Shown here one piece after another: positions 1-18,548 of a DNA stretch of 51,069 nt (positions are counted from its first letter, which is position 1; each line of letters begins with the position of its first letter). Source of the DNA: an uncultured Bacilli bacterium. Lineage in GTDB: Bacteria; Bacillota_I; Bacilli_A; RFN20; CAG-288. The translations under genes were made by a program, and so were the position numbers. The notes below the pieces were generated by a model. It made no database searches. It was not told the origin of the DNA and worked only from the letters and a program-made list of their open reading frames with translations. Location: positions 1 through 51,069 of the forward strand of contig CALVYN010000004.1 of NCBI GenBank assembly GCA_944372245.1, in the 5' to 3' direction.

Positions 1-2676
1 AGCACTGGTGGCGGCCAGGGCGGCTCCAGCGGTTCCGGCGGCGGAACCGCTGAGAAGGCCAATGGCGCTTTCAACTATCTGGCTAAGAGCTACGACGAGC
101 GCGCTGAGATCCTGGGTGCTCTCGAGAGCTATGCGATCACCAACCACCTGACTGGTATCCCCATGTTCGACGATGGCGGCGAGGGCATCTACAGCCAGCG
201 TCTCATCTTCCCCACCGAGAACTACGTCAACGGTTACGGCTGGGGTATGCTGCGCGAGGGTAAGATCAATCCCAACGGCGTGATGCTCCCCGACGGCACC
301 ACCCTCGTGGACACCGATGATCCTTCTCGCAGGTACTATGACTACCTGCACTACATGCAGGATGAGAACCCCGTCACCATCAACGGCGCGGACTCTCAGG
401 ATACTGTCGGTTCCAACTATGACAGCTATGCGCACGTCGGTCTGTTTGGCACCAGGCTGAAGACCGATGCCAACGGCGACTACCTCGAGGAGTACGAGTG
501 GTACCCCGTCCTGGCCAAGACCTTCCCCAAGCCTGAGAAAGGCATCATCGAGGGTGGCGACGGCGAGCAGACTCTGGCTTCCACCTATCGCTTCTACGTC
601 AAGACCGGTGCGGATGGCGTCAAGTATTCCACCCTGTCCACCGATCGTGAGATCAGCCCCTTCAACGGCCGCGATGTCCAGGCTGAGGACTACGAGTTCG
701 CCATGCGCATGCTGCTCTCGGGCGACATCAACTACTACCGTGCCTCCCAGTACATCGACACCACCCCTCTGGTCGGCGCAGCCAACTACTTCAACGTCTC
801 GCAGCAGTACGGCTGGTACTCCAAGGAAGCCGATGCGGCCTGGGAGGGTGTGGGCTATCACGTCGGCCACGACCAGCAGGGCGACTACGTCGAGGTGACC
901 TATCAGGTCCCCACCAACGAGTTCTACGCCATGTACCAGATCACCTCCTTAACCACCCCTGTCCCCCAGGAGTTCTTCGAGACCGTCTGCCACTTCGACG
1001 CGGCGCACCCCGAGACCGCCAACTACCTGGCCTACGGCAACGTTGACGGCAACCGAACCCCCGTGGACACCTACCTGTCCATCGGCCCTTACACCATTGA
1101 GACCTGGCAGACCGGTAACGGCATCTTCACCTTCAAGCAGAACCCTGACTGGTGGGAGGTCAAGGAGGGTGCCTATCAGATCAAGGGCATCAAGTACACG
1201 ACCGACCGCAAAATAAAGGACGATCCCAATGCGGTCATCACCGCCTTCTTCAAAGGCCGGACCGATTCGGCTTCCGTCACCGCCAACTTCTACGATCAGT
1301 GCCACAATGCTCAGAACGAGAGTCTGGTCAAGCAGACTCCCGGTTCCACCACCTTCAAGTGGAATGTGAACTCCTGCGACGATGCGATGTGGGAACAGCT
1401 CTTCGGCCCCAACGGCACCATCGTCCAGACCCCCGAGAGCGGCAAGTGGGAGCTCAAGCCTGCGATGTCCAACGATGACTTCCTCAACGGTCTGTTCGTC
1501 GCGACCGACCGCGATGCCATCGCCGACCAGACCCACTCCAACGCTGCCTACGAGTACTTCACCGACGAGTACCTGATCGATCCCGAGAACGGTGGCGTCT
1601 ACAACGAGACCGAGGCTCACAAAGCCGCTGTCGCTGCCTACTACCCCGAGACCAACGGCTACAACCGCGCCGCGGCTGAGACCCTGTTCACCAGGGCTAT
1701 CCACACCTTCATCGAGTCCGGTGCCTACCAGGCGGATTCCACCATCAGGATCTCCGCGATCCAGATGCTGCAGTCCGAGCTCGACACCTGGGGCAGCCTG
1801 TGGGAGTCCAGCGTCGAGAGCATCTTCAACAGCGCGGCCGACGCTGCCGGCTATCCCGACATGACTCTGGACATCGTCCAGGAGGCTGTCGCCAACCAGA
1901 TGGACGTCTACGACAAGCACCTGAATGTCGGTCAGTTCGACCTGTGCATGGGCGCCATCTCCGGTTCGACCCTCGATCCTCTGGGCTTCATGGAGTGCCT
2001 CAAGTCCGACAACTCCTCCGGCTTCACCCTGAGCTGGGGTACCGACACCTCTCTGGATGATGGCACCCTGCAGTACGACGGCAAGTCCTGGTCCTACGAT
2101 GCGCTCTGGAGTGCGGCCAACGAGGGTGCCCTCGTCAGCAACGGCGAGATGGCTGAGCCCTACCTCTACCTCGAGAGCACCGCGAAGAAGACCGTCATCA
2201 ATACCGATGGCGAGCAGCATGTCGCCCTGCAGCTGTCCTTCGAGGTCAACGCTGACCTCTGCGCGGCGGCTGGCATCGACCTGACTGTCGATCCCGAGAC
2301 CGGCGTGCCCGCCGGCATCGCTGGCGTGAGCGTGACCGCCTCCTACTACGACGCCGACTCCACCCTGATGGTCGACGGCCAGCTCTACAGCTCCTTCAAG
2401 TTCACCAGCAGCGCTGACCAGATCACCTACGATGAGGCGACCAAGACCCTGACTGTCTACATCGACCTCAACCTGGCTACCGACCCCAAGACCGTCACCA
2501 CCGACGACGCTGAGCAGACAGCCTACCTGGAGAAGTTCATCGATGTCTTCTCCGGCGGCGAGGGCTCCAACCCCGTCTCCTTCAGCGTCTCCTTCTCCTC
2601 CAACATGGAGATCAACGGCGTCCCCTCGACCGGCGACAGCGTCACCATCTTCTCCTCCTCGATCGCGAACGCTTAA
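1..2676 (+). CDS. oppA: Oligopeptide ABC transporter substrate-binding protein (family 5 SBP), 5' truncated by the window; apparently circularly permuted, with an extra C-terminal domain
   Basis: Frame is open from base 1 (STGGGQGGSSGSGGGTAEK...), so the ATG at 163 is internal. SBP5-type motifs: YPVLAKTFP...TYRFYVK...NGRDVQAEDYEFAMR, SIGPYTIETW, KQNPDWW, GQFDL. Lies directly upstream of oppBCDF. Confidence 0.88.
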   Translation, partial: STGGGQGGSSGSGGGTAEKANGAFNYLAKSYDERAEILGALESYAITNHLTGIPMFDDGGEGIYSQRLIFPTENYVNGYGWGMLREGKINPNGVMLPDGTTLVDTDDPSRRYYDYLHYMQDENPVTINGADSQDTVGSNYDSYAHVGLFGTRLKTDANGDYLEEYEWYPVLAKTFPKPEKGIIEGGDGEQTLASTYRFYVKTGADGVKYSTLSTDREISPFNGRDVQAEDYEFAMRMLLSGDINYYRASQYIDTTPLVGAANYFNVSQQYGWYSKEADAAWEGVGYHVGHDQQGDYVEVTYQVPTNEFYAMYQITSLTTPVPQEFFETVCHFDAAHPETANYLAYGNVDGNRTPVDTYLSIGPYTIETWQTGNGIFTFKQNPDWWEVKEGAYQIKGIKYTTDRKIKDDPNAVITAFFKGRTDSASVTANFYDQCHNAQNESLVKQTPGSTTFKWNVNSCDDAMWEQLFGPNGTIVQTPESGKWELKPAMSNDDFLNGLFVATDRDAIADQTHSNAAYEYFTDEYLIDPENGGVYNETEAHKAAVAAYYPETNGYNRAAAETLFTRAIHTFIESGAYQADSTIRISAIQMLQSELDTWGSLWESSVESIFNSAADAAGYPDMTLDIVQEAVANQMDVYDKHLNVGQFDLCMGAISGSTLDPLGFMECLKSDNSSGFTLSWGTDTSLDDGTLQYDGKSWSYDALWSAANEGALVSNGEMAEPYLYLESTAKKTVINTDGEQHVALQLSFEVNADLCAAAGIDLTVDPETGVPAGIAGVSVTASYYDADSTLMVDGQLYSSFKFTSSADQITYDEATKTLTVYIDLNLATDPKTVTTDDAEQTAYLEKFIDVFSGGEGSNPVSFSVSFSSNMEINGVPSTGDSVTIFSSSIANA

Positions 2677-2690
2677 AAAAGCTGTTTCAG

Positions 2691-2730
2691 CAAGGAAAAA
2701 AGAGGGTGATATACACCCTCTTTTTCCTTG
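2691..2730 (+). terminator. Stem-loop between oppA and oppB (terminator or mRNA-stabilising hairpin)
   Basis: CAAGGAAAAAAGAGGGTG-atata-CACCCTCTTTTTCCTTG inverted repeat immediately after the oppA stop. Confidence 0.75.
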
Positions 2731-2804: not shown

Positions 2805-3848
2805 ATGGGAAAACTAAAGTATGTTCTCGAGAGACTTCTGCTGGCGTTCATTACTGGTTTCATCATCCTCACCATCACCTTCATCCTCGTCAAGCTCCTG
2901 CCCGAGGCGAAACCGGCCGGTGACGTCGGCGCACAGCTCTCCTACTACAACAACCAGGTCCGACTTGGCTACTACACCTCCAGCCCCTTCTTCATGGCTG
3001 ATCTCGGCGATCCCACCTGGACTTACACCGCCGATGACGGCACGATGATGTACTTCTACAAGCTGCCGATCATGACCCAGTATGGCAACTGGCTCAGGAA
3101 CGTGTTTACCAAGTGGGATTGGGGAACCTCAAGCAGCATCGACCGAAACCGTGATGTCTTCATCATGATCGGCGAAAGATTGCCCCCCACCATCGTCGTC
3201 AACGTCATCACCTTCGCCCTCGCGGTGCCTCTGGGTATCGCTCTGGGCATCTGGTCCGCCCTCAAGCGGAACAAGCCCACCGATCGGGTCATCTCCGTCC
3301 TGGTCATGGTCTTCATCTCCATCCCCTCCTTCGTCTTCATCTCGCTGCTGATCATCATCTTCGGCTACACGCTCAACTGGCTGCCAGTCCGCTGGCCGGC
3401 GACCACCGCCACCCTGGGAACCAGGGCGGCCGGTCTGGTCATCCCCGTCCTAGCGGGCGCCTTCGGTTCGATCTGCGGCTATGAGCGTCTGGTCAGAGGC
3501 GAGCTGATCGAGGCCCTCTCCTCCGACTACCTGCTCCTGGCCCGCACCAAGGGTCTGACCAAGGGTCAGTCCGTCGTGCGCCACGCCCTGCGCAACGCCA
3601 TGGTCCCCATCCTCCCCTCCATCCTCGCGCAGATCGTCGGTATCCTCGGCGGCTCGGCCATCCTCGAGCAGATCTACTCCATCCCCGGTATCGGACAGCT
3701 GTTCATCCTTTCAATCAAGACGATGGATATCAACGTCATGCTGGCGGATATGACCGTCTTCACGATGATCGGCCTGCTGGCTGGCATCGTCCTCGACCTG
3801 TCCTACGGTTTCCTCGACCCCCGCATCAGGATGGGAGAAAGGAAGTGA
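2805..3848 (+). CDS. oppB: Oligopeptide ABC transporter permease OppB
   Basis: N-terminal KYVLERLLLAFIT..., DWGTS, several TM helices, EAA loop SSDYLLLARTKGL...HALRNA, C-terminal YGFLDPRIR. Confidence 0.95.
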   Translation: MGKLKYVLERLLLAFITGFIILTITFILVKLLPEAKPAGDVGAQLSYYNNQVRLGYYTSSPFFMADLGDPTWTYTADDGTMMYFYKLPIMTQYGNWLRNVFTKWDWGTSSSIDRNRDVFIMIGERLPPTIVVNVITFALAVPLGIALGIWSALKRNKPTDRVISVLVMVFISIPSFVFISLLIIIFGYTLNWLPVRWPATTATLGTRAAGLVIPVLAGAFGSICGYERLVRGELIEALSSDYLLLARTKGLTKGQSVVRHALRNAMVPILPSILAQIVGILGGSAILEQIYSIPGIGQLFILSIKTMDINVMLADMTVFTMIGLLAGIVLDLSYGFLDPRIRMGERK

Positions 3849-3854
3849 TCGCGC

Positions 3855-5870
3855 ATGGAAAATAACGAGTTCTCCTTCGCGCCGCAGACCCCTGCGGTCG
3901 CGGCCGACGGCTTCACCTCCGAGGACTTCAAGTTTGTCCAGCTCGACAAGAGCATCCACGACCAGAGGTTCCAGGGCCGCTCCACCACCTACCTCAGGGA
4001 TATCGTTCGCCGCTTCGTCAAGAACAAGACCTCGGTCTTTGGCTTCTGCCTGTTCGGCCTGTTGATCCTCCTGGCGATCGGCTTTGCCCTGTTCCTGCCC
4101 GGTAACGCCGACAAGACCTCCCCCACCCCCGCTGAGAAGCAGCTGCCGCCCAAGCTCTTTGCGGCCGGCACCGGCTTCTGGGATGGCACCCGCAAGTACG
4201 AGGAGTACCTGTTCGACACCGAGACCGGCCAGCCGGTCCTGGGCAGCCTCGAGCAGGACGCCATCCTCCAGGACACCCTGGTGACCTACGCGGGCACCTA
4301 CGACTCCGAGACCCCCTACGGCCATGGCGGCTACGTCGTCATCGACCCCTCGGCCCAGCTGCGCAGCCCCGTCCTCGAGATGTCGCTGGCGGATGACGGC
4401 AGCGCCTACCAGGGCGAGTACAGCCTGACCTTCGACCACCTCACCTACGGCCTGGACACCTCCTACACCTCCACTCCCACCTACGCCATCTGGTTCCAGG
4501 GCATCGACAACTCCGGCGCCACCATGAGCAACGTCCAGCTGGTCAGCGGCCTGACAATCGACACCAGCCTGGAGCAGACTACCGTCGACCTGAGCGCCTA
4601 TGTCGACGCTATCCAGGCCAACGCCTCTGGCGAGCTGCCCGCGCGCGGCCGCTTCATCGTTCAGGCTGCCGATGCCCCCATCTTCTTCGAGGGCATCAGC
4701 CTGAGCTCCAGCGAGGTCGACTGGAGCGGGACGGGCATCGACGATGCCTCCGACGATCTGATGATCACCCGCTACAACGAGACCTCCGACACCGGCGACG
4801 ACATCGAGGGCTACGAGAACTGGTGGACCCGCTCCTCCTCGCAGTCCGTCCACGGCTACCGTGTCCCCGTCACCTACTGCGACTTCACCTACGACCCCTA
4901 CGAGGAGGTCTACGGCATCTCCACCGTCAGCATGACCCCCGGCACCCTCAACGATCTCAAGACCCGCGGCGCCATCGACTACCAGCTCGATGAGGATGGC
5001 GTCATCATCATCGACTCCCTGGTCGAGCTGAGCGAAGAGAACTATCTGATCATCGGCGACAGCGAGTACCCCATGGAGCTGAAGATCTCCTCCGGTATCG
5101 CCGGCACCACCTGGACCCTCGAGGCCTACCAGATCACCTACAAGAATCCGACCTTCGGCTATACCTCGATGCCAATCCACATCTTCGGTACCGACGTCAA
5201 CGGACTGGACATGCTCAAACTCGTCTCCATCGGTATGCTCTACTCCCTGTTGATCGGTATCGCCGTCTCCGCCATCTGCTTCCTCATCGGTCTGGCCTGG
5301 GGTTCCTTCTCCGGCTATCAGGGCGGTCTGGTCGACCTGGGCATGGAGCGCGTGGTCGACGTCCTCTCCTACATCCCCGGCATGGTCGTCATCACCCTGT
5401 TCATCCTCAACTGGGGCCACACCTTCTGGGTCTTCATGCTGGCGATGTGCGTGACCGGATGGATCTCGACCTCGGCCCTGACGCGCACTCAGTTCTACCG
5501 CTTCAAGCGGCGCGAATACGTCCTCGCCTCGCGGTCGCTGGGCGCTTCCGACGGGCGCTTGATCTACCGCCACATCCTGCCCAACGGCCTGGGAACCATC
5601 ATCACCTCCTCGGTTCTGATGATCCCCTCGGTCATCTACTCCGAGGCCTCTCTGGCCTATCTGGGTCTGGGTCTGCAGGACATCACCTCGCTGGGCACCA
5701 TCATCCAGAACAACCAGAGCACCATCACCACCGCGGGCGGCAACCCCGACCTGACCTACCTGATCATCTTCCCCTCGGTGGTCCTCGCTCTGCTATTGAT
5801 CTGCTTCGAGCTGTTCGGCCAGGGTCTGCGCGATGCGGTCAACCCCAACACCAAGGGTATGGACGACTAG
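3855..5870 (+). CDS. oppC: Oligopeptide ABC transporter permease OppC with a large extracellular insertion
   Basis: OppC N-terminus (YLRDIVRRFVKNK + TM1), then ~360 acidic residues, then HIFGTDVNGLD, EAA loop REYVLASRSLGAS...HILPN, and GQGLRDAVNP. Confidence 0.93.
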   Translation: MENNEFSFAPQTPAVAADGFTSEDFKFVQLDKSIHDQRFQGRSTTYLRDIVRRFVKNKTSVFGFCLFGLLILLAIGFALFLPGNADKTSPTPAEKQLPPKLFAAGTGFWDGTRKYEEYLFDTETGQPVLGSLEQDAILQDTLVTYAGTYDSETPYGHGGYVVIDPSAQLRSPVLEMSLADDGSAYQGEYSLTFDHLTYGLDTSYTSTPTYAIWFQGIDNSGATMSNVQLVSGLTIDTSLEQTTVDLSAYVDAIQANASGELPARGRFIVQAADAPIFFEGISLSSSEVDWSGTGIDDASDDLMITRYNETSDTGDDIEGYENWWTRSSSQSVHGYRVPVTYCDFTYDPYEEVYGISTVSMTPGTLNDLKTRGAIDYQLDEDGVIIIDSLVELSEENYLIIGDSEYPMELKISSGIAGTTWTLEAYQITYKNPTFGYTSMPIHIFGTDVNGLDMLKLVSIGMLYSLLIGIAVSAICFLIGLAWGSFSGYQGGLVDLGMERVVDVLSYIPGMVVITLFILNWGHTFWVFMLAMCVTGWISTSALTRTQFYRFKRREYVLASRSLGASDGRLIYRHILPNGLGTIITSSVLMIPSVIYSEASLAYLGLGLQDITSLGTIIQNNQSTITTAGGNPDLTYLIIFPSVVLALLLICFELFGQGLRDAVNPNTKGMDD

Positions 5871-5887: not shown

Positions 5888-7765
5888 ATGAGTGAAGAGA
5901 AGCAGCAGACCTCCGGTGAGGTCATCCTCTCCGTCAGGGATCTGACCATCGACTTCCGCTCCGACGAGGGCTTCACCCAGGCGGTGCGCGGCGTCTCCTT
6001 CGACCTGAAGAAGGGCGAGACGCTGTGCATCGTCGGCGAGTCCGGCTCGGGCAAATCCGTCTCCTGCAAGACCATCATGGGCATCCTGCCCGGCTCGGCC
6101 ATCATCCGCAAGGGTTCGGTCATGTACCGCGGCGAGGATCTGACCAAGATCTCCGAGGAGGAGTTCCATCGCATCCGCGGCAACCTCATCGGCATGATCT
6201 TCCAGGATCCCCTCTCCGCCCTCGACCCCATCGTCAGGATCGGCAAGCAGATCACCGAGTCGATGATGGTCAACGCCAACCGCCTGAAGATCAGGCGCGA
6301 CAACCTGACCCTCAGGGAGCTTTCCCACTACAACTCCATCGTCTCCGAGGTCAAGAAGGCCAAGGCAGCCATCAAGGTCCTCAAGGCTGACAGGGCCGAG
6401 ATCAAGAAGTTCAAGGAGACCTCGGCGGTCAACATCGACTACAGGGTCGACGACCTCCACGCCGCTAACGCCGAGCGCCTCGCCCTCCACCCCGAGGAGA
6501 AGGAGGCTCTGGAGCGCCAGGAGCGCGAGCTCCGGGCCCAGCTGAGCGCTGAGCGCCAGGCTGAGATCGAGAAGCGCCTGGCCTCCCTCAAGGAGCGCAA
6601 GGCCCAGGCCAAGGCCAACTACCGCCAGGTCAAGAAGGCCTCCAAGGCCCCCAAACGCGAGGCCGCCAAGGCCCTGCGCGCGGCCCGGAAGCGGGCCAAT
6701 GCCGAGATACGCACCTTCAAGCGCGACTCCATCGCCGAGTACAAGCACCAGCGCGACCTGATCGAGTCCCGCTACCCCAAGGAGGAGATCGAGGCTGAAT
6801 ACAGGAAGGCCAAGAAGGCCTTCGAGGCCGAGGCCCGCCGTATCGAGAGCGAGCGCAAGGTCGAGCTGGCCAAGATCTCCGCTAAGCGCGCCCTTAGAAA
6901 CAGCGGTCTAGCCGCCGAGCGCAAGGAGGTCAACATCGCCTTCGACCAGAAGCGCAAGGAGGCCTACGAGCGCCTGCTCAAGGCCGCGGAGGACCGCCAC
7001 AACGAGCGCCAGGCCAAGCTGGATGAGAACTTCTTCCACAACTACTGCGAGAAGATCCGCTACACCCGCCGCTACGCCAAGGCCCGCGCCATCGAGGTCA
7101 TGACCGAGGTCGGCATCCCCCAGGCCGAGAAGCGCTTCCGCCAGTACCCCTTCGAGTTCTCCGGCGGCATGCGCCAGCGCATCGTCATCGCCATCGCCCT
7201 GACCGCCAACCCCGAGATCCTCATCTGCGACGAGCCCACCACCGCGCTCGACGTCACCATCCAGGCCCAGATCCTCGAGCTGATCAACCGCCTGAAGAAG
7301 GAGCGCAACATGTCGGTCATCTTCATCACCCACGACATGGGTGTCGTGGCCGAGATGGCTGACCGCATCTGCGTCATGTACGCGGGTAAGATCGTCGAGT
7401 TCGGCACTGCTTACGACATCTTCTACAACCCCAAGCACCCCTACACCTGGGCGCTGCTCTCCTCCATCCCCGACCTCGACTCCAAGGAGAAGCTGGAGGC
7501 CATCCCCGGCACCCCTCCCAACATGAACTTCCCGCCCGAGGGCGACGCCTTCGCGCTGCGCTCCAAGTACGCCATGGCCATCGACTTCAAGCAGATGCCT
7601 CCCTTCTTCAAGGTCTCCAAGACCCACTATGCCGCCACCTGGCTGCTCGATCCTCGCGCCCCCAAGGCCGAGATGCCTAGGATCGTCTCGCGCAGGATCG
7701 AGATCTCACTCAATAAGGCAGGAGTAACGTATGAGCAACTTGAAAGACAGGAAGAATCTGATTGA
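5888..7765 (+). CDS. oppD: Oligopeptide ABC transporter ATP-binding protein OppD with a long basic helical insertion
   Basis: Walker A GESGSGKS, Q-loop IFQDP, signature FSGGMRQR, Walker B ILICDEPTTALD, H-loop ITHD, HPYT oligo_HPY tail. RBS GGAGG upstream. Confidence 0.95.
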   Translation: MSEEKQQTSGEVILSVRDLTIDFRSDEGFTQAVRGVSFDLKKGETLCIVGESGSGKSVSCKTIMGILPGSAIIRKGSVMYRGEDLTKISEEEFHRIRGNLIGMIFQDPLSALDPIVRIGKQITESMMVNANRLKIRRDNLTLRELSHYNSIVSEVKKAKAAIKVLKADRAEIKKFKETSAVNIDYRVDDLHAANAERLALHPEEKEALERQERELRAQLSAERQAEIEKRLASLKERKAQAKANYRQVKKASKAPKREAAKALRAARKRANAEIRTFKRDSIAEYKHQRDLIESRYPKEEIEAEYRKAKKAFEAEARRIESERKVELAKISAKRALRNSGLAAERKEVNIAFDQKRKEAYERLLKAAEDRHNERQAKLDENFFHNYCEKIRYTRRYAKARAIEVMTEVGIPQAEKRFRQYPFEFSGGMRQRIVIAIALTANPEILICDEPTTALDVTIQAQILELINRLKKERNMSVIFITHDMGVVAEMADRICVMYAGKIVEFGTAYDIFYNPKHPYTWALLSSIPDLDSKEKLEAIPGTPPNMNFPPEGDAFALRSKYAMAIDFKQMPPFFKVSKTHYAATWLLDPRAPKAEMPRIVSRRIEISLNKAGVTYEQLERQEESD

Positions 7766-9719
7766 TCAGGTGGGGGTGACCGCCCCCCTGTCGGTGCTCT
7801 CCTGCCGGGAGATCACCGAGCGCAACGCTGCGCGGGTCCGCCGCGCCAGCGTGCGGGTCGTCCACCTGGCCGAGGTCGATGCGCTGATCAAGGCCTCGCT
7901 CAAGGACCGCCAGCCTCGGGTTGAGAAACACGAGGCTGCCAGTGAGACCTCTGTAGCTTCCAATCCTGTGGCTACCTCCGAGGTTGCCCCTGAGGTCAAG
8001 GTCGAGGTCAAGGCTGAGACCGTCGAGGAGGCGCCTGCGGCTCAGGCTGAAGCGCCTGTGGCCGAGGCGGCTTCCGCGGCTGTGACCGAGACTGAGACTA
8101 AGACTGCGCCTGCAGCTGAGTCGGCGCCGGCTGCGCCCGCGGTTATCACCGCCGCGATGCGCCGCCCCGCCTACTGGTATCAGGGTGCGCTCCAGGCCTG
8201 GGATGAGGTCTGCAGCCAGATGAGGGCGAGCGACATCGAACCCGCCTACTGGTTCCACCACGCCCAGCAGGTCAACGCCCACGGCCGCGCCTACAAGTCT
8301 CTGGCTCAGGAGCATCGCGAGATGCCCGAGTGGGAGAAGCAGAAGCTGTCCCGCACTACCTTCGATCAGAAGCTGATCGACGACGATGTGATCCTCTCCG
8401 TCCGCCACCTCAAGAAGTTCTTCACCCTCGGCTCCGGCCTCAGCAAGGACAAGCTCAAGGCCGTCCACGACGTCTCCTTCGACGTCCACAAGGGTGAGGT
8501 CTTCGGTCTGGTCGGCGAGTCCGGCTGCGGCAAGACCACGACCGGACGCACCCTGATCAGGCTCCACGCCCCCACCTCCGGCTCGGTCTACTTCATGGGC
8601 TACAGGATCGCCGCCGGCGACCGCTGGAACCAGAAGGAGATCAAGTGGAAGCGCAAGCGCGGGCGCGCCATGATCAAGAAGCTCAAGCGCGACCGCCGCG
8701 CCGAGCTGACCGAGGCCAAGGCCGATGCTGCCAAGCGCGGCAGCATCCCCGAGATCAAGAGCCTGTACAGCCAGCACATCGCTGAGTCCCGGGCCCAGAT
8801 CAAGGCGACCATCGCCGAGCAGAAGGCCAAGATCAAGCAGATCCACTACGATGAGAGGCACGTCGACAAGCACCTGCTGACCAAGATGCAGATGATCTTC
8901 CAGGACCCCATCGACTCCCTCGACCCCCGCATGACCGTCCAGGACATCATCGCTGAAGGTCTGAAGATCCAGCACTACGGCCGCCGCATGACCGAGCGCC
9001 TGGAGCGCGAGCGCGACGACAACATCGCCAGGCTGAAGGCTTCCAACCTGCCCGCCAGCATGAAGGCTGACAAGGAAGCGTTCATCTGCGAGGACTATCG
9101 CCGCCGCATCGCCAAGGTCCAGGACTACAAGGGCCTGGTGGCCGACGTCCTGGCCAAGGTCGGCCTCATCCCCGAGTACGCCTCCCGCTATCCCCACGAG
9201 TTCTCCGGCGGTCAGCGCCAGCGTATCGGCATCGCCCGCGCCCTGGTCATGAACCCCGAGCTGATCGTGGCCGACGAGCCCATCTCCGCGCTGGATGTCT
9301 CCATCCGCGCCCAGATCATCAACCTGCTCAACGACCTCAGGGACGAGATGGGTCTGACCATCGTCTTCATCGCCCACGACCTCTCCGTCGTCAAGTACTT
9401 CTGCGAGCGCATCGCGGTCATGTACTTCGGCAACCTGGTCGAGCTGGCCACCTCCGACGAGCTGTTCAAGCACCCGCTCCACCCCTACACCAAGTCGCTC
9501 CTCTCCGCCATCCCCAAGCCCGATCCCCTCTCCGAGAAGACCCGTGTCCGCATCAAGTACAACCCTGCTGAGGACCACGACTACTCCCGCCAGGAGCCCA
9601 CGCTCCAGGAGATCGAGCCCGGTCACTTCGTCCTGGCTAACGACGCCGAGATGGAGAAGTACCGCAAGGAGATCGAGGAGGACGACCGCCTCGAGACTGA
9701 GAAGCAGCTCTCCGAGTAG
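7731..9719 (+). CDS. oppF: Oligopeptide ABC transporter ATP-binding protein OppF with N-terminal extension and insertions
   Basis: Walker [49 protein letters not shown] just upstream of ATG 7731; overlaps the oppD end by 35 nt. Confidence 0.92.
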
Positions 9720-9916: not shown

Positions 9917-12900
9917 CTAGTAGTTGCTGTTGAACGAGGCGGAGAAGGTGTAGCTGTTGGCGATGGGGTTGAAGGTGAAGTAGGCGGTGGTGCCATAGTC
10001 GTAGAAGGGGCAGCTGACCGTCTCATCCCAGGAGGCGGTGAACTCGGCCTCGCCGATGTTGGTGAAGGTCAGGGTGCCGCTGTTGTAGGTGTAGTTGAAG
10101 GTGGCTCTCTCGAGCTCCTCGCGGCTGTTGTAGTCCTTGAGGATGAAGACGCCGGTACCATCCTCATTGAACTCGACACCGAGGTAGTGAGGAGCCTCGT
10201 TATAGGTGACATAGGCATCGCTGTAGGTGTACTTCAGAACGGGGTTGGCGTAGTGCTTGGTGAAGGTGACCGACTCGGAGTTGGTGTAGCCCATGCGGAC
10301 GAGGTTGACGGCGAGGCTCTCGTAATCCAGGGCGGCATCGATGGACAGATCGGTGCGGATGTAGCCGAAGTAGGGGTCGTAGTGGCCCGCGCCGGGATCG
10401 GTGGTGGGGGTCTGACCGATTGCGATATAGGTGCCGGTCATGCCGGTGACCTCAGTGCCGCCGGTCAGGGTGAGGACGCCGTCGGTCAGGGTGTAGCTCA
10501 GGGTGTCGACATACTCGACATCGCCGTTGTTCTGGGTGATGGTCATGGTGCTGGCATCGGTATCGAAGGAGATGTGCGCACCCATGTACTCGCTGCCGTA
10601 GTCCCAGCTCTGGCTCAGGACGTTCTCGATGATGTCGTCGTTCGTTCTGGGCGGCAGGACCTCGATGGTGTAGGTCTCGGTCGTGACCAGGTCGTAGTCG
10701 GCGAAGCCGATCTTGAAGGTGTACTTGCCCTCCTTCAGACCGCGGATGACATAGCCCGCGGTGCCCTCGATGGTGGAGGAGGGACGGCGCAGCTCCAGCG
10801 CGCCGTCGGCGGGCTGACCCTGCTCGTCCTTGATGTCCTTGAGGACGAAGTTGTAGCCGTCAGGGTTGTCGGGAGTCGCGTTGATGAAGAAGCGGGCGGT
10901 GTCGGTGCCGAAGAGGATCTGACCGAAGTCGGTGGGGTGGTCAACGCGGATGGAGGCGGGCTCGCCGAAGTCGGTGTAGCGGATGATGAAGGATTTGGTC
11001 ACACCTTTGGAGGTGGTGAAGGTGACCAGGGACTTGCCCTTCACGGAGTTGCCCTGGTTGGTGAAGCTGTTGGCGACGATATAGATGTCGCTTCTAAGGT
11101 TGTTGACGGTGCAGACGGGGAGAGGAACCTCGGGGGTCACATCGCTCTCATCTCCCTGGTTGGCCAGGATGGTGTACTCGATGGGGGTGACCTTGACGGA
11201 GATGTCATCCAGCAGGACGCTGCCCGAGCCGGTCAGGCGCAGGGCAAAGCTCATGTTCGGGGTCATCGTGTAGACGGGATACCTCTGGCCCTCGTACTCC
11301 TCATAGTCAGGAATGTCCTTGGAGAGGTACTTGGTGTCATCGGTGAAATCGTACTGGTCGCTCTTCTGGCCGAACATGTTGTTGACATCGAGATAGCTGA
11401 CCAGCAGGTTGTCGATGACGATGCGGTTCTGGTAGCTCGTATCGGCGGTCTTGGTGCCGTAGGTCAGTTCGGCGGTCTCGCTCACGTAGTTGATGACCTT
11501 GGAGTCCTCTAGGACCACGGAGCTGAAGGCGTAGTAGGTCAGGCTGCCCTTACCATCGAACGCCAGGGTCAGAGAGATGGAGTTATCCAGGGTGGTGCCG
11601 AAGTTGTCGATGCTGGTGAAGACGGAGGTGATGCCGATGGCGTGGTCGGTGGAACGCACGACCATGTTGCGCTTGGCGGCGCTGTTGGCGATGGCGGGCG
11701 CACCCATGTAATCGGTGCTGGTCAGGATCTCGATAGCGTTGTTGACCAGGCCGTAGGTAGAACCATCGTCGTAGTTGAAGGCTAGGTTGGCATTCTGCTC
11801 ATATCCAGTCGCAGCGCTCTTGCTATAGACATCGTTGACATTTGTATTGCCGTAGTTGCTGGTATAGCTGAAGTTGTAGTAGCGCTCGTTCTGGATGCCG
11901 GAGTAGGCGTTGGTGACATTAATGTTGCTTCCGGTGTTGGTAGTTACGGGCTCGGTGATCGTGGTGTAGACCGCATCGGTAAAGTAATCGTACTGGATGG
12001 TCTTGTCCGAGGTCTCGGTGACATCGGTGTAGACGGGGTCGCCGGAATCATCGAAGCTGGTCTCGGTGGTGACGGTCTTGGTCGAGCGGCTGACCGTGGC
12101 CGAGGTGGCGCTCTCAGCCTCGGCGCTGACCGCGGCGGTCAGCTTTTCAGCCAGGGCGTCGATCGCCTCCTGGTTGGCGTCCTTGATCTGCAGCTTGAGC
12201 TCGCCGTAGACATACTCGGTCTGGGAGATGGGATAGCCGACCTGGAGGGTCAGAACCACATCATCCAGAGGCATCAGAACCTCGCAGACGCCGGTGGCGC
12301 GATCGACATCCACATAGCTCTCATAGGAGACGCCGGAGGTGTCGGGCAGCAGGCGGTAGAAGACGTCGCCCACAGGGGCGATGGGGTTCTCCACATCCAG
12401 GTTGTAGAGGACGTGGAAGGTCGAGTAGACATCGACGGTGTAGATGCCGCTCTCCTGGTCGAAGGTGGCCTCCTCCGCATCGATGTAGGGCAGGACCTTG
12501 GTGGGGACGTTCTTGACGGCGGAGACGGCGACCGTCCAGGTCGCGGTCTTGGCCGGATCGACGGTGGAGGCCGCCTGGATGGTGGCAGAGCCCTCCGCCA
12601 GTCCGGTCACGCAGCCGGTCTGGTCGACGCTGGCGATCTCGGGGGTCAGCGAGGTCCAGGTGACCCGGTTCTCGGGGTCACCCTCCACGCCGGCAGTCAG
12701 GGTGATCGACTGGCCCACGTTGACCGAGGTGGGACCCAGGATGCTCACGCTGGTGATGACCAGCTCCTGGCTGGAGCTCGAGTCCGAACTCGAGCTGGAC
12801 GAGGTGGAATCGGGCAGCTGAGTGCTAGGGGTCGAGGAGACAGGAGAGGAGGAGCTGTTGCCCTGCTCACCGGGGGTGCAGGCCGCGAGCGGCAGGACGA

Positions 12901-12940
12901 TTGTCGAGAGAAGACTCAACAGAAAATAGGGCTTTTTCAT
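9917..12940 (-). CDS. Large surface lipoprotein (~1007 aa) with a bacterial Ig-like (Big_2-type) domain
   Basis: Start moved to MKKPYF (ATG 12940, RBS GAAAGGA). Lipobox LPLAA-C, Ser-rich linker, then Big_2-like SVNVGQSITLTAGV...VTWTSLTPEIASVDQTGCVTGLAEGSATIQAAS. The rest is beta-rich and acidic. Confidence 0.85.
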   Translation of the reverse strand: MKKPYFLLSLLSTIVLPLAACTPGEQGNSSSSPVSSTPSTQLPDSTSSSSSSDSSSSQELVITSVSILGPTSVNVGQSITLTAGVEGDPENRVTWTSLTPEIASVDQTGCVTGLAEGSATIQAASTVDPAKTATWTVAVSAVKNVPTKVLPYIDAEEATFDQESGIYTVDVYSTFHVLYNLDVENPIAPVGDVFYRLLPDTSGVSYESYVDVDRATGVCEVLMPLDDVVLTLQVGYPISQTEYVYGELKLQIKDANQEAIDALAEKLTAAVSAEAESATSATVSRSTKTVTTETSFDDSGDPVYTDVTETSDKTIQYDYFTDAVYTTITEPVTTNTGSNINVTNAYSGIQNERYYNFSYTSNYGNTNVNDVYSKSAATGYEQNANLAFNYDDGSTYGLVNNAIEILTSTDYMGAPAIANSAAKRNMVVRSTDHAIGITSVFTSIDNFGTTLDNSISLTLAFDGKGSLTYYAFSSVVLEDSKVINYVSETAELTYGTKTADTSYQNRIVIDNLLVSYLDVNNMFGQKSDQYDFTDDTKYLSKDIPDYEEYEGQRYPVYTMTPNMSFALRLTGSGSVLLDDISVKVTPIEYTILANQGDESDVTPEVPLPVCTVNNLRSDIYIVANSFTNQGNSVKGKSLVTFTTSKGVTKSFIIRYTDFGEPASIRVDHPTDFGQILFGTDTARFFINATPDNPDGYNFVLKDIKDEQGQPADGALELRRPSSTIEGTAGYVIRGLKEGKYTFKIGFADYDLVTTETYTIEVLPPRTNDDIIENVLSQSWDYGSEYMGAHISFDTDASTMTITQNNGDVEYVDTLSYTLTDGVLTLTGGTEVTGMTGTYIAIGQTPTTDPGAGHYDPYFGYIRTDLSIDAALDYESLAVNLVRMGYTNSESVTFTKHYANPVLKYTYSDAYVTYNEAPHYLGVEFNEDGTGVFILKDYNSREELERATFNYTYNSGTLTFTNIGEAEFTASWDETVSCPFYDYGTTAYFTFNPIANSYTFSASFNSNY

Positions 12941-12973
12941 GTGTAAAACTTTCCTTTCGCTTCGACGCGATAG

Positions 12974-13002
12974 ATTATGCAACCACAGCATTTTCTTGTC
13001 AA
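12974..13002 (-). promoter_or_regulatory. Sigma-A type promoter of the Ig-domain lipoprotein gene
   Basis: Minus strand TTGACA-17 nt-CATAAT. An inverted repeat TTGTC-aaagc-GACAA (12996-13010) overlaps the -35 box. Confidence 0.7.
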
Positions 13003-15141: not shown

Positions 15142-16929
15142 TTAGCGTGCCTCCGTATCGGTCAGCGCGGCGAAGGTCTCATCCAGCGCGCTGACGCTGG
15201 TGGTCCCGATCTGGGAGATGGCCATGTTCATCTGGACCTGGTTAGCGGGATCCTCGGGGTTGTTGGCGTACAGGCGGATGTCGCACCCGTCGATGGCCTG
15301 GTCCGCGCCGCGGTGGATGATGGTCTCGCCGCGGGTGACGTCGCTGACCCAGGAGTCGCCGGGGACGAAGCCGAAGCCGAACAGGCCGTAGCCCAGGGTG
15401 GAGAGGACCGAGGCGTCGGTGGTGTAGTAGGTATCCGCCGCCTTGGGATCCTTCTCCATGTAGAAGCGGGCGATGTGGCCGATGGTGGCGGCCGAGGTGT
15501 AGAAGGTGGCGCTGTTGGTGATGTAGAAGTCGGAGACATCGTCGTACCAGTCGGTGTAGGGCGTGAAGCCGTAGGTGTCGTTGACCGCGTCGATGACCGT
15601 CCACTGGTAGGCGACGTTCTCCGCGGTGACGATGTAGAGCCAGCCCTCATGGCGCTGCTCCTCGGGCAGGGCCATGAGCTCCTCCTTGGTGTCGACCTGG
15701 ACGAACTTGACCGTGTCTGTCTCGTTGGGTCCGAGGCGGGAGATGAAGTGGGGCTGGCCGTCGACGAAGTCGAAGTCGTAACAGGCGGAGTAGGGGACCG
15801 AGGTCACCTCGCTGGGGGCGTAGGTGCCATCAGCCTGCCTGGTCTCCAGCTGGATCTCGACCCCGGCGGGGACGAACATGTAGCCGAAGTCGGTGTAGCC
15901 CTGCTGGTTGTAGGTATCGGTGTAGTCGATCAGGAAGTAGTTCTCCGTCAGCTGGGCATCGAAGGTGGAGAAGGTGCCGCCCTGGTTGGTCACGGTGGGG
16001 TGGATGGTGTAGTTATCCTGGTTCAGCATGCCCTCGTACAGGGTGACGATATCCTGATAGTAGGGCACGCCCTGAATCGTTCCATCCTCCAGCGCCTGGT
16101 CCAGGTCGTCATACTCGGTCTCCATCAGGGGCGTGAAGTCGGAGACGATTGAGCCGCGGTCGCCCAGACCGATGGTGACGCGGAAGCTGTTGGTGTAGGG
16201 GTCGGTGATGGTCAGGCGGCACTCGGTCATCAGCGAGGCGATGGACGAGCCCATCTGGGTCATGAACTGGAAGATCGTGTAGGTCGAGGAGGAGGTGATG
16301 AGGTATTCGGTCTCGCTCAGCTTGATGCCGGTCAGCTCGTCCAGGGTGGTGTCGGAGATGTTGTTCAGGCCCGCGATGCCGAAGACGCCGTAGAGGTCGG
16401 TCATCGGCTCGGGCTCATCGCCGGTGTAGTCGACGTACTCATACAGGGAGGCGCGGTAGCGGTCCAGGCCCTCCTGATCCTCGTCCACATAGAAGCGGAA
16501 GACGTTCTTATCGGCGCCATCCGCCTCCTCGGCCAGGCCGAAGCTGGCGGCGGGGTCGGTCAGGTTCTCCTCGTAGAAGTAGTGTTCGCCGTAGTGGTCG
16601 ACCACCTGGGAGGTCGCTCCGTCGATGTTGTAGGTGGTGGCGTAGGTGTAGGTCCTGAGATCCTTAAAGCCTTCGAGCAGGGTCTTCAGAGCCGAGACGT
16701 CGGTCATATCGACCTCGGCCTCGTCGTCGTACTGGCCGCCGCCCAGCTCGTCCTCACCCACCGGGGGCAGGTCGGGGTCGGGGGTGGAGGAGGAAGAAGA
16801 CGAGGAAGAGCTCGCGCCGGTGGAGACGGGAGTGGAGGAGGAAGAGGAGGTGTGGGAGGTCTGGCCTCCGGGCTGGCAGGAGGCGACGACGATCAGGGGC
16901 AACAGCAGCAGAAGTCTCTTGTTTCGCAT
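15142..16929 (-). CDS. Uncharacterised lipoprotein (595 aa), two related modules
   Basis: Lipobox MRNKRLLLLLPLIVVAS-C, poly-Ser linker, RBS GGAGG; operonic spacing of 2 nt. Confidence 0.85.
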   Translation of the reverse strand: MRNKRLLLLLPLIVVASCQPGGQTSHTSSSSSTPVSTGASSSSSSSSSTPDPDLPPVGEDELGGGQYDDEAEVDMTDVSALKTLLEGFKDLRTYTYATTYNIDGATSQVVDHYGEHYFYEENLTDPAASFGLAEEADGADKNVFRFYVDEDQEGLDRYRASLYEYVDYTGDEPEPMTDLYGVFGIAGLNNISDTTLDELTGIKLSETEYLITSSSTYTIFQFMTQMGSSIASLMTECRLTITDPYTNSFRVTIGLGDRGSIVSDFTPLMETEYDDLDQALEDGTIQGVPYYQDIVTLYEGMLNQDNYTIHPTVTNQGGTFSTFDAQLTENYFLIDYTDTYNQQGYTDFGYMFVPAGVEIQLETRQADGTYAPSEVTSVPYSACYDFDFVDGQPHFISRLGPNETDTVKFVQVDTKEELMALPEEQRHEGWLYIVTAENVAYQWTVIDAVNDTYGFTPYTDWYDDVSDFYITNSATFYTSAATIGHIARFYMEKDPKAADTYYTTDASVLSTLGYGLFGFGFVPGDSWVSDVTRGETIIHRGADQAIDGCDIRLYANNPEDPANQVQMNMAISQIGTTSVSALDETFAALTDTEAR

Positions 16930-16931
16930 CT

Positions 16932-18548
16932 CTAGTGCACCTCCGTGAGGTCCTCGACCGTGACGGTCGCAGACAGGGTTGAACCGTCGTTGAGGGTGTC
17001 CTCGTTCAGGAAGAAGTCGGCATACGTGGCGAAGGAGAAGGTGTCGCCCTCGCCGAAGTAGGAGCGGGCGGTCTGGAAGCCGCCGGTGGAGAAGGTGTTC
17101 TTGCCCTCGGCCTCGATCAGGCGGATTTCGTCGTAGGGGAAGACCTCAATGTCGAGGTTGAGGTCGTAGTAGTACTGGTTGTAGTCGACCGAGTTGGTGA
17201 TGGGGAGGATGAAGCCCTCGCCCTCGCTCAGCTCGGTGCCCTGGGCCTCGGTGGTCACATACTGGCGGGCGATCTCGTCGTAGCGGGTCACGAAGCGGCG
17301 GTTGTCGATATGGTAGATGCGCACGCCGGCTCTTTCGGGAGGCAGGGGGCGCTGGGCCACGGGGTACTCCCGGTCGAGAGCGTTGACGCCGGTGGGGGAG
17401 TACAGCTCGATGAGGATGTACTCGCTGAAGGGGTCGAAGACGCCATCCTCGACGGTCTGACCATCGGGCAGGAGGACGATGAAGCTGTTCTCCTGGTCCG
17501 CGGTCAGGGTGATGGTGGCGTCGCCCGAGACTACGTAGGGCTTCTCCCAGCCCAGCAGCATCTTGGTGTAGGCGTTGTGGTCGCCGATGTTGCCATCCAT
17601 CATGTCGACCTTGCCGACGGGGTTGTAGAAGGAGCGGTCGGAGTAGTAGTCGTTCAGGCCGAGGAAGTGGCCGGTCTCGTGGATGTAGGTGTGGGCGTCG
17701 GGATGGTCCTCGTAGGTGTCGTACATGAAGTCGTAGGAGGCCCAGCCGAAGAGGTTGTAGGCGTACTGGTTCAGATCGGGGTTGGGCGTGACCGACTGGT
17801 TGCCCCAGGAGGTGTAGGCCCAGAAGTTCTGGTCGTCGGTCATCGGGCCGTTGCGGCTGTAGTCCTCGGCCGAGTAGATGACCCAGATGCCGTCGTAGAA
17901 GCCATCCTTGTCGCTGTCGAAGTCCCGGCGGGACAAATGGTAGGTCTTGAAGGCCCAGCTGACCGCATCCTGGACTAGGTCGTAGGTCGCATCGATGGTG
18001 ACCTGGGCAGAGGCGGTGATGCCGGAGAGAGAGGCGTCGTACCAGTCGGTCACGGTGCCCGAGAGGCGCAGCTGGCCGTGGGAGGACTCCTCGTAGAAGG
18101 AGGCGACGGAGTGGATGCCCTCGGCGGTCTCCTCGCCGAAGAAGGCCTGCTCGATGTCGCTCTTGACCGCCGCCTGCTTCTCCTCCTGGGAGAGGGTGGC
18201 GGGCAGATCGGCCTCGGCGAAGCTCTTGTAGTCGGGCATCAGCACGGGGATGACCAGCAGGTTGACATCGCCCTTGGAGGGCAGGACCTGGGTGTTGTAG
18301 AAGCGGTCGTCCTCGATGGAGTGGAGGTCGTCGGCCAGGGTCACCTCATCCGGGGAGAGGACCTGTCCGCCCTCGGCTCCATCGATGCGGATGGTGGCTG
18401 AGTCGGCCGTAGGCTGGACGACGCTGCTGGAGGACGACGAGGAGGAAGAGGAGGTGGCGGAGGAGCTGCTGTCACCCTTGCTCGCCTGGCAGGAAGCCAG
18501 AGCCAGAGGCAGGGCCAGCAGCCCGATTAGATAGCTCTTTCGATTCAT
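16932..18548 (-). CDS. M6 family (immune inhibitor A-like) zinc metalloprotease lipoprotein
   Basis: Lipobox LALAS-C, poly-Ser linker, LPSKGDVNLLVIPV, SVASFYEESSHG, DSDKDGFYDG, zinc motif HETGHFLGLNDYY, Met-turn DMMD. Confidence 0.9.
   Translation of the reverse strand: MNRKSYLIGLLALPLALASCQASKGDSSSSATSSSSSSSSSSVVQPTADSATIRIDGAEGGQVLSPDEVTLADDLHSIEDDRFYNTQVLPSKGDVNLLVIPVLMPDYKSFAEADLPATLSQEEKQAAVKSDIEQAFFGEETAEGIHSVASFYEESSHGQLRLSGTVTDWYDASLSGITASAQVTIDATYDLVQDAVSWAFKTYHLSRRDFDSDKDGFYDGIWVIYSAEDYSRNGPMTDDQNFWAYTSWGNQSVTPNPDLNQYAYNLFGWASYDFMYDTYEDHPDAHTYIHETGHFLGLNDYYSDRSFYNPVGKVDMMDGNIGDHNAYTKMLLGWEKPYVVSGDATITLTADQENSFIVLLPDGQTVEDGVFDPFSEYILIELYSPTGVNALDREYPVAQRPLPPERAGVRIYHIDNRRFVTRYDEIARQYVTTEAQGTELSEGEGFILPITNSVDYNQYYYDLNLDIEVFPYDEIRLIEAEGKNTFSTGGFQTARSYFGEGDTFSFATYADFFLNEDTLNDGSTLSATVTVEDLTEVH

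Follow-up and report, generated by a model that had tools for sequence, protein, structure and literature searches.

The locus described here raises the question of whether the binding protein encoded at its very start has its fold wired in a rotated order. The window, by which we mean the whole stretch of DNA that was analysed (51,069 nucleotides of an uncultured Bacilli bacterium, contig CALVYN010000004.1 of assembly GCA_944372245.1), comprises bases 1-51069 of that contig (C4), base 1 of the window being base 1 of the contig. Its first open reading frame (ORF; 1..2676, plus strand, 891 aa), open in frame 1 from base 1 to the stop codon at 2674-2676, encodes a relative of the family-5 substrate-binding proteins, which are among the commonest bacterial receptors. 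The oppB, oppC, oppD and oppF genes lie downstream on the same strand, giving the linkage of Opp/Dpp-type ATP-binding cassette (ABC) importers. A prediction made from the sequence alone (the original prediction) held that the protein is a circularly permuted OppA whose terminal helix-strand unit has moved from the C-terminus to the N-terminus. Our analysis supports this claim through reciprocal profile alignments, the N-terminal position of the unit in nearly all family members, and a core in canonical order. We conclude that, very probably, the protein is the lipid-anchored receptor of an Opp/Dpp-type ABC importer and its chain follows the family-5 (cluster C) fold in a truly circularly permuted order.

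In canonical family-5 proteins, a unit of about 65 residues, consisting of a long helix followed by short strands, closes the fold at the extreme C-terminus. In the window protein this unit comes first, directly after the lipobox and a Gly/Ser tether, with the whole core next in its usual order. The chain of the fold stops behind the helix after which canonical proteins continue into the unit, and its cut therefore falls in the loop that connects their last two helices. The parts of the gene are as follows.

1..63, plus strand: Gly/Ser tether of the lipoprotein, final part only (aa 1-21), the contig edge having cut off its start together with the signal peptide and the lipobox Cys
64..270, plus strand: relocated unit (aa 22-90), a homologue of the helix-strand unit with which canonical family-5 binding proteins end
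271..336, plus strand: variable junction (aa 91-112), rich in indels, at which the former C-terminus meets the former N-terminus
337..2130, plus strand: core of the binding protein (aa 113-710), of family-5 (cluster C) type, which starts with the first canonical strand, keeps the usual order and closes with the helix WSYDALWSAANEG
2131..2676, plus strand: beta-sandwich domain added at the C-terminus (aa 711-891), with the stop codon

N-terminus of the binding protein

The sequence motifs on which the prediction relied were all found in frame 1 where it had placed them: the N-terminal motif SYDER...GYGWG (aa 30-82, nt 88-246), the core motifs NPVTIN (aa 123-128), YPVLAKTF (aa 168-175) and DVQAEDYEF (aa 225-233), and the core-end motifs GQFDL (aa 644-648), DPLGFME (aa 659-665) and YDALWSAANEG (aa 699-709, nt 2095-2127). 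Since the window starts where the contig starts, the 5' end of the gene is missing, and it was absent from every other contig of the 61-contig source assembly (1.12 Mb, about 90% complete, 60% G+C). The contig break (window 1-51) falls within the Gly/Ser-coding tether, and the assembler was probably halted by this low-complexity coding repeat.

Recovery of the 5' end, which had been proposed as a check, thus failed in the assembly itself and succeeded in relatives. A word-index search recovered 22 relatives of the binding protein, the closest being P0002 (93% identical, 925 aa) and P0003 (90% identical, 924 aa). Both are ordered as signal peptide, lipobox LAGC, Gly/Ser tether and then the segment NYLAKSYDERAEILG; in P0002 the Gly/Ser run at which the window ORF opens is preceded by MANKKFLSLGVLPILSVFLLAGC, a signal peptide with lipobox. 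The same layout, from signal peptide through lipobox and tether to unit, is common to all 22 relatives, and a 941-aa open frame in a genome of the same genus (G002) has the lipobox and tether directly before the unit. Therefore, the segment is the true N-terminus of the protein and not the tail of an upstream gene.

An exhaustive profile search extended this picture to 2,001 cluster representatives at E <=1e-3, of which 469 reached E <=1e-30; the best 150 of these 469 representatives (clusters at 50% identity) all had E <1e-164, and most matched from about profile position 1. A census of 168 family proteins placed the unit upstream of the core in 161 (159 by a strict rule, with P0028 and P0162 added by inspection) and at the C-terminal end in two; five records, N-terminally cut or mis-started, had no unit, and none had it at both ends. 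By a simple pattern, a lipobox-like signal peptide was found within the first 70 residues of 147 of the 159 strict-rule proteins. The median gap between the match of the unit hidden Markov model (HMM) and the core envelope was 9 residues. In some family members an immunoglobulin (Ig)-like domain of about 80-100 residues follows the lipobox, ahead of the relocated unit (alignment A1 columns 60-190; L020, L021 and L022), and P0023 has fibronectin type III repeats after the core instead.

Homology of the core and the relocated unit

The core has its closest relatives in related genomes, in a sister clade of long family-5 proteins (L011, L013, L024, L025, L026, L029 and L031; about 800-980 aa), which keep the unit at the C-terminus, lack the C-terminal beta-sandwich domain, and supply in their C-terminal unit the best match to the N-terminal unit of the window protein. 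The sister-clade profile could be aligned, without any change of order, with ordinary PF00496 proteins up to and including their closing helix and strands (positions 389-857 with 168-593/611, E 6.7e-25), and it matched solved OppA-type chains (E 2.4e-20). Judged from these sequence profiles, the sister clade is canonical in chain order. The core of the window family likewise aligned with canonical PF00496 proteins (aa 120-670 to 36-497, E 6.1e-20; hhalign with the family profile). The window protein itself had no PF00496 match at E <=1, and no PF00496 match was found in its own genome; the family members P0006, P0007, P0015 and P0023 match PF00496 with E 2.5e-19 to 9e-29, and a precomputed match exists for 18 of the 22 homologues.

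Three sets of profile comparisons connect the N-terminal segment with the canonical C-terminal unit. In hhalign, the profile of the segment (aa 28-86) matched sister-clade positions 817-874 of 902 (P 6.8e-6), and reciprocally the sister-clade C-terminal unit, compared with the whole family profile, fell on aa 26-90 (probability 92.4%, P 5.1e-7). When the full profiles were aligned, two matches appeared in swapped order, aa 111-685 with sister-clade 87-765 (E 4.6e-46) and aa 25-90 with sister-clade 814-878 (P 3.3e-4), so that homologous blocks are present with their order exchanged. Furthermore, an HMM of the sister-clade C-terminal unit was run on the 168 family proteins together with 8,283 decoy ORF translations (E up to 10). 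It matched 115 sequences (best E 3.3e-5): 111 just N-terminal of the core, none C-terminal of it, one inside the core, and three decoys. The position was thus the same in 111 of the 112 matched family proteins, with the unit N-terminal of the core rather than in its canonical C-terminal place. The original prediction would have been undermined if the protein had its own equivalent of the unit further downstream; the region after the core (aa 696-891) had no profile similarity to the canonical C-terminal unit in hhalign. At the level of sequence profiles, the resemblance of the N-terminal segment to that unit exceeds chance.

The unit is also the most conserved part of the protein, with a mean top-residue frequency of 0.56, compared with 0.46 in the core, 0.22 in the junction and 0.15 in the C-terminal domain (aa 711-891), the least conserved part. 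Its conserved stretch comprises Y75, Y79-G80-x-G82 and E86-G87. Indels are visible in the junction (aa 91-112) in alignment A1.

Predicted structure

An AlphaFold2 model built on an 85-sequence alignment had a mean predicted local distance difference test score (pLDDT) of 92.9 and a predicted template modelling score (pTM) of 0.91; the moved unit scored 96-98, and the tether (aa 1-13) fell below 50. The unit is predicted to consist of a strand (22-24), a helix (31-47) and two further strands (53-57 and 60-64). The top Foldseek matches of the model were cluster C binding proteins only (AliC, Listeria OppA, AliB, AmiA and DppE; E from 2.2e-18). Among the 50 matches listed by VIA-align, Z ranged from 22.1 to 17.1 over 409-476 aligned residues, with Z 21-22 for superposition on OppA, AmiA and DppE, and the model has the three-domain OppA-like fold. 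The ESM Atlas held no structure for P0004, and a feature search there gave SBP_bac_5 clusters only.

The ranges of these alignments bear directly on the chain order. All 50 listed alignments end at model residue 707-713 and start at model residue 65-115, and none of those listed reaches the helix at 31-47; the last 50-60 residues of the solved chains are left unaligned (1ola is covered over 1..461 of 517 residues and 1dpp over 1..449 of 507). This is the pattern that a sequential aligner must give for a permutant. For 1ola, 3tcf and 4toz, the alignment opens at model residues 85-86, opposite a chain residue in the range 1-27. Several Gram-negative OppA chains start at model residue 85-86; the old C-terminus therefore passes almost directly into the old N-terminus. 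The junction (aa 91-112) overlies, in some superpositions, the N-terminal arm of mature Gram-negative OppA.

The added C-terminal domain

The proposal that the freed C-terminus carries an added domain was borne out. A beta-sandwich is predicted for aa 711-891 and is absent from the sister clade. In the full model, pLDDT was about 85-95 over aa 711-850 and dropped toward the end, with a helix at 836-851 followed by strands at 859-871 and 874-886. Folded alone, the region gave a beta-sandwich with one long helix (pLDDT 72.7). Foldseek and VIA found no specific structural relative of the domain and returned only generic Ig-like neighbours: the best Foldseek match was a Kir7.1 channel chain (9nms_A, E 5e-4, template modelling score 0.33), and the best VIA Z was 6.7, with none of 48,161 chains reaching Z 8. 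The rewiring may have left a free C-terminus to which this variable domain was then added.

Probable function of the protein

The protein would still work on the Venus-flytrap principle, as a receptor from which OppBC takes over the ligand. The rewiring would shift the point at which the lipid tether enters the fold: with the boundaries that we assume for Salmonella OppA, which put the helix of the unit in lobe III and its strands in lobe I, the entry would move from lobe I to the helix on lobe III, the opposite lobe. OppA and DppA use the Asp of the GW..D motif to bind the alpha-amino group of the peptide. In the corresponding column the window protein has Ser656, and the family has Asn in 90, Ser in 20, Met in 12, Gly in 5 and Asp in 4 of 138 sequences. 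In the canonical L003-like clade the Asp is invariant (111/111); in B. subtilis OppA it is the Asp of GWLGDF, opposite which the family consensus has Asn. The conserved Asp of the OppA/DppA type is missing from the window protein.

Alternative explanations

Several observations weigh against a permutation. The window protein's own match to the sister-clade unit HMM was only E 0.037, and the protein had no Pfam match (E <=1), no NCBIfam match (E <=0.1) and no PDB match by phmmer; its N-terminal segment alone gave one irrelevant PDB match (phmmer, E 1.3). The sister-clade profile was built from only seven sequences, and the plain unit HMM matched four of these seven proteins weakly (E 0.018 to 2.9). 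No match was found by hhalign, in either direction, between the segment profile and the C-terminus of the 111 L003-like canonical proteins. The spatial equivalence of the unit is inferred from the confident AlphaFold2 model and the complementary alignment ranges. The segment HMM, run on 123 canonical proteins and 8,284 ORF translations, had the C-terminus of L011 (E 0.13) as its sole canonical match. The family profile matched the core of PDB chains and the unit only once, below threshold, at the C-terminus of 6npo (71-111 to chain 485-525, -1.9 bits). The expectation that the segment alone would find the C-terminus of family-5 proteins was therefore satisfied for the sister clade and failed for the distant canonical clade and PDB sequences.

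This lack of significant similarity to distant canonical clades and PDB chains is what one would expect if the N-terminal segment were an unrelated look-alike add-on, the true unit having been lost and structurally replaced by the C-terminal beta domain, which itself contains a helix followed by two strands (H836-851, E859-871 and E874-886). We regard such a replacement as quite improbable in view of the significant reciprocal matches to the sister-clade unit and the constant position of the unit in 111 of 112 matched proteins. The C-terminal region, for its part, has no profile similarity to the unit, folds alone as a generic beta-sandwich and is the least conserved part of the protein, whereas the N-terminal segment is the most conserved. 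In addition, in two family members described below, P0051 and P0072, the beta domain is followed by the unit; the two elements therefore coexist and are not alternatives. An artefact would also have to be considered, because the window starts inside the gene and the 5' end is absent from the assembly: the segment could be the tail of a complete upstream binding-protein gene, or part of a tandem fusion, hidden by the contig edge, a circumstance that the original prediction itself had named as fatal to it. The chance of this is practically negligible given the lipobox and tether directly before the unit in P0002, P0003 and the G002 frame, the lipobox-like start seen in 147 of 159 family proteins, the placement of the unit ahead of the core in 161 of 168, and the absence of any protein with a unit at both ends.

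The unit could also be homologous and act in trans, its long tether allowing it to complete the fold of a neighbouring molecule and so form a dimer or oligomer with swapped domains, like that in the crystals of pneumococcal AliC. The top match in both Foldseek and VIA is indeed the domain-swapped AliC dimer (8qlh), which indicates that family-5 proteins are able to swap elements. The confident monomer model (pTM 0.91), in which the unit is packed at pLDDT 96-98, and the short junction between unit and core, with a median of 9 residues, argue against it, and we think this arrangement highly improbable. We favor a circular permutation within one chain, which would have arisen by tandem duplication, in-frame fusion and trimming.

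Further permutations in related proteins

In a quick IQ-TREE of the core region (53 rows), the window family (16 rows) formed one clade with a Shimodaira-Hasegawa-like approximate likelihood ratio test (SH-aLRT) support of 96, sister to the canonical clade (7 rows) with a joint support of 99. The two census proteins with the unit at the C-terminal end, P0051 (911 aa) and P0072 (1045 aa), run from the core through the beta domain to a unit at the extreme C-terminus and have no N-terminal copy, and their C-terminal unit matches the family's own unit HMM with E about 1e-26. In a FastTree built from 171 cores, with the sister clade as root, they were sisters (support 1.0) and sat 15 nodes deep within clades of 50, 107 and 160 rows (supports 0.991, 0.965 and 0.974). 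Most simply, P0051 and P0072 represent a second permutation of an already permuted gene, which may again have proceeded by tandem duplication, fusion and trimming. Both topologies thus occur in nature, one in these two proteins and the other in the 161 family proteins with the unit ahead of the core.

A second permuted clade was found within an ordinary PF00496 clade of about 600 aa, by comparison of the loci L002:1429-3318 (minus strand) and L003:1195-3027 (plus strand). It comprises L002 and nine of the 120 closest homologues of the canonical L003 (P0172, P0174, P0175, P0176, P0178, P0180, P0212, P0257 and P0273). These permutants begin with the 90-100 residues that come last in L003, and each of the two blocks is 43-54% identical: aa 141-611 of L002 align with aa 36-506 of L003 (46% identity, E 8e-137), and aa 32-130 of L002 with aa 512-610 of L003 (43% identity, E 3e-22). 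Their cut point lies one helix earlier than in the window family, and they nest inside the canonical L003-like clade in a quick IQ-TREE. The L002-like permutation is independent of that of the window family. A third permuted clade may exist in L008:1465-3636 and L009:1474-3681 (both minus strand), binding proteins of 724 and 736 aa that match PF00496 nearly to the C-terminus and whose N-terminal region resembles the canonical closing helices, with a weak hhalign hint only (P 0.053).

Organization of the locus

The binding-protein gene is followed by these features.

2697..2725, plus strand: 12-pair stem-loop in the gap that separates oppB from the binding-protein gene, from a consensus scan only; the number of stem-loops is not above that in shuffles
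2805..3848, plus strand: oppB, permease of 347 aa (NCBIfam Opp3B, 3.2e-59)
3855..5870, plus strand: oppC, permease of 671 aa (NCBIfam Opp3C, 3.8e-68; Pfam OppC_N at aa 45-99 and BPD_transp_1 at aa 479-666)
5888..7765, plus strand: oppD, ATPase of 625 aa (NCBIfam MMSYN1_0167, 3.4e-133)
7731..9719, plus strand: oppF, ATPase of 662 aa (Pfam ABC_tran, 2.3e-28; oligo_HPY, 1.9e-9)

An oppB homologue followed the family gene in all nine loci fetched from related genomes. The stem-loop, directly 3' of the binding-protein gene and without a long T run, may be a candidate intercistronic attenuator of read-through into oppBCDF. In OppC, about 380 residues separate the OppC_N helix from the permease domain; this insert has no family match and is presumably extracytoplasmic. 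OppD and OppF have long Lys/Glu-rich inserts within the ABC domain. On the minus strand, the window also encodes a 1024-aa protein with a Big_2 Ig-like domain (9917-12991) and lipoprotein-like starts, with signal peptide, Cys and Ser-rich tether, at about 16786-16929, 18396-18545 and 20212-20316.

Significance and comparison with known systems

Our results support the view that the window family is a topological variant of a known fold that has become fixed in a large family of Bacillota lipoproteins, and they provide evidence of repeated permutation. No description of a circularly permuted family-5 or cluster C binding protein was found in the full-text literature, subscription-only papers being outside the scope of the search. 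The one mention of "permut" that was followed up (PMC8461474) concerns a mutarotase domain. A large family with rotated order seems to have been overlooked, perhaps since Pfam models only the middle of the fold.

The window protein is a natural example of a common protein fold rewired, in the receptor of an ordinary bacterial peptide-type importer. For studies of folding and evolution, L002 and L003 (46% identical across the core) and, within the permuted family, P0051 and P0072 offer natural matched pairs of topologies. Annotation programs that expect the canonical order would mis-model such proteins. The new termini mark where the fold tolerates a cut and a fusion, which is useful in the design of biosensors from binding proteins. 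As a bolder conjecture, which we consider rather unlikely, the closing unit would be a relocatable module in the tethered binding lipoproteins of gut Bacillota, having moved at least three times here (in the window family, back in P0051/P0072, and independently in the L002-like proteins). Such moves would be selected by the changed attachment of tether and accessory domains, which would re-orient the receptor on OppBC, and the beta-sandwich would possibly dock on the OppC insert of about 380 residues, yielding a permanently engaged receptor.

The canonical PF00496 proteins Salmonella OppA (1OLA), B. subtilis DppE (8AZB) and OppA (8ARE), and pneumococcal AmiA (8A42) and AliB (8QLJ) have the same fold as the window protein over about 440-476 residues (Z 21-22). 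They share with it the oppBCDF partners, and the window family is probably anchored as a lipoprotein like the Gram-positive canonical members. In contrast to them, the window protein has its last unit of about 65 residues first, carries an extra C-terminal beta-sandwich, and is so divergent in sequence that Pfam does not match it. With the Mycoplasma-type Opp system (NCBIfam MMSYN1_0165 to MMSYN1_0168), matches were found for OppB, OppC and OppD, and the best model for OppD, MMSYN1_0167, shares the long ATPase insert, all scores being below the curated cut-offs; in contrast, the binding protein is unmatched and the window genome has 60% G+C.

A parallel in chain order is Tp0684 (TpMglB-2) of Treponema pallidum, described as a circularly permuted glucose-binding lipoprotein of cluster B with a solved crystal structure (PMC4990184). 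According to its authors, homologues occur mostly in organisms with tethered binding proteins, and the topology was suggested to be an adaptation to anchoring (PMC4990184). The families described here give a testable form of this idea, namely that permutation adapts binding proteins to lipid tethering (PMC4990184). Like the window protein, TpMglB-2 is a natural circular permutation of a binding lipoprotein of an ABC transporter; unlike it, TpMglB-2 belongs to cluster B, has three strands of the N-lobe near its C-terminus and crosses the hinge an extra time (PMC4990184).

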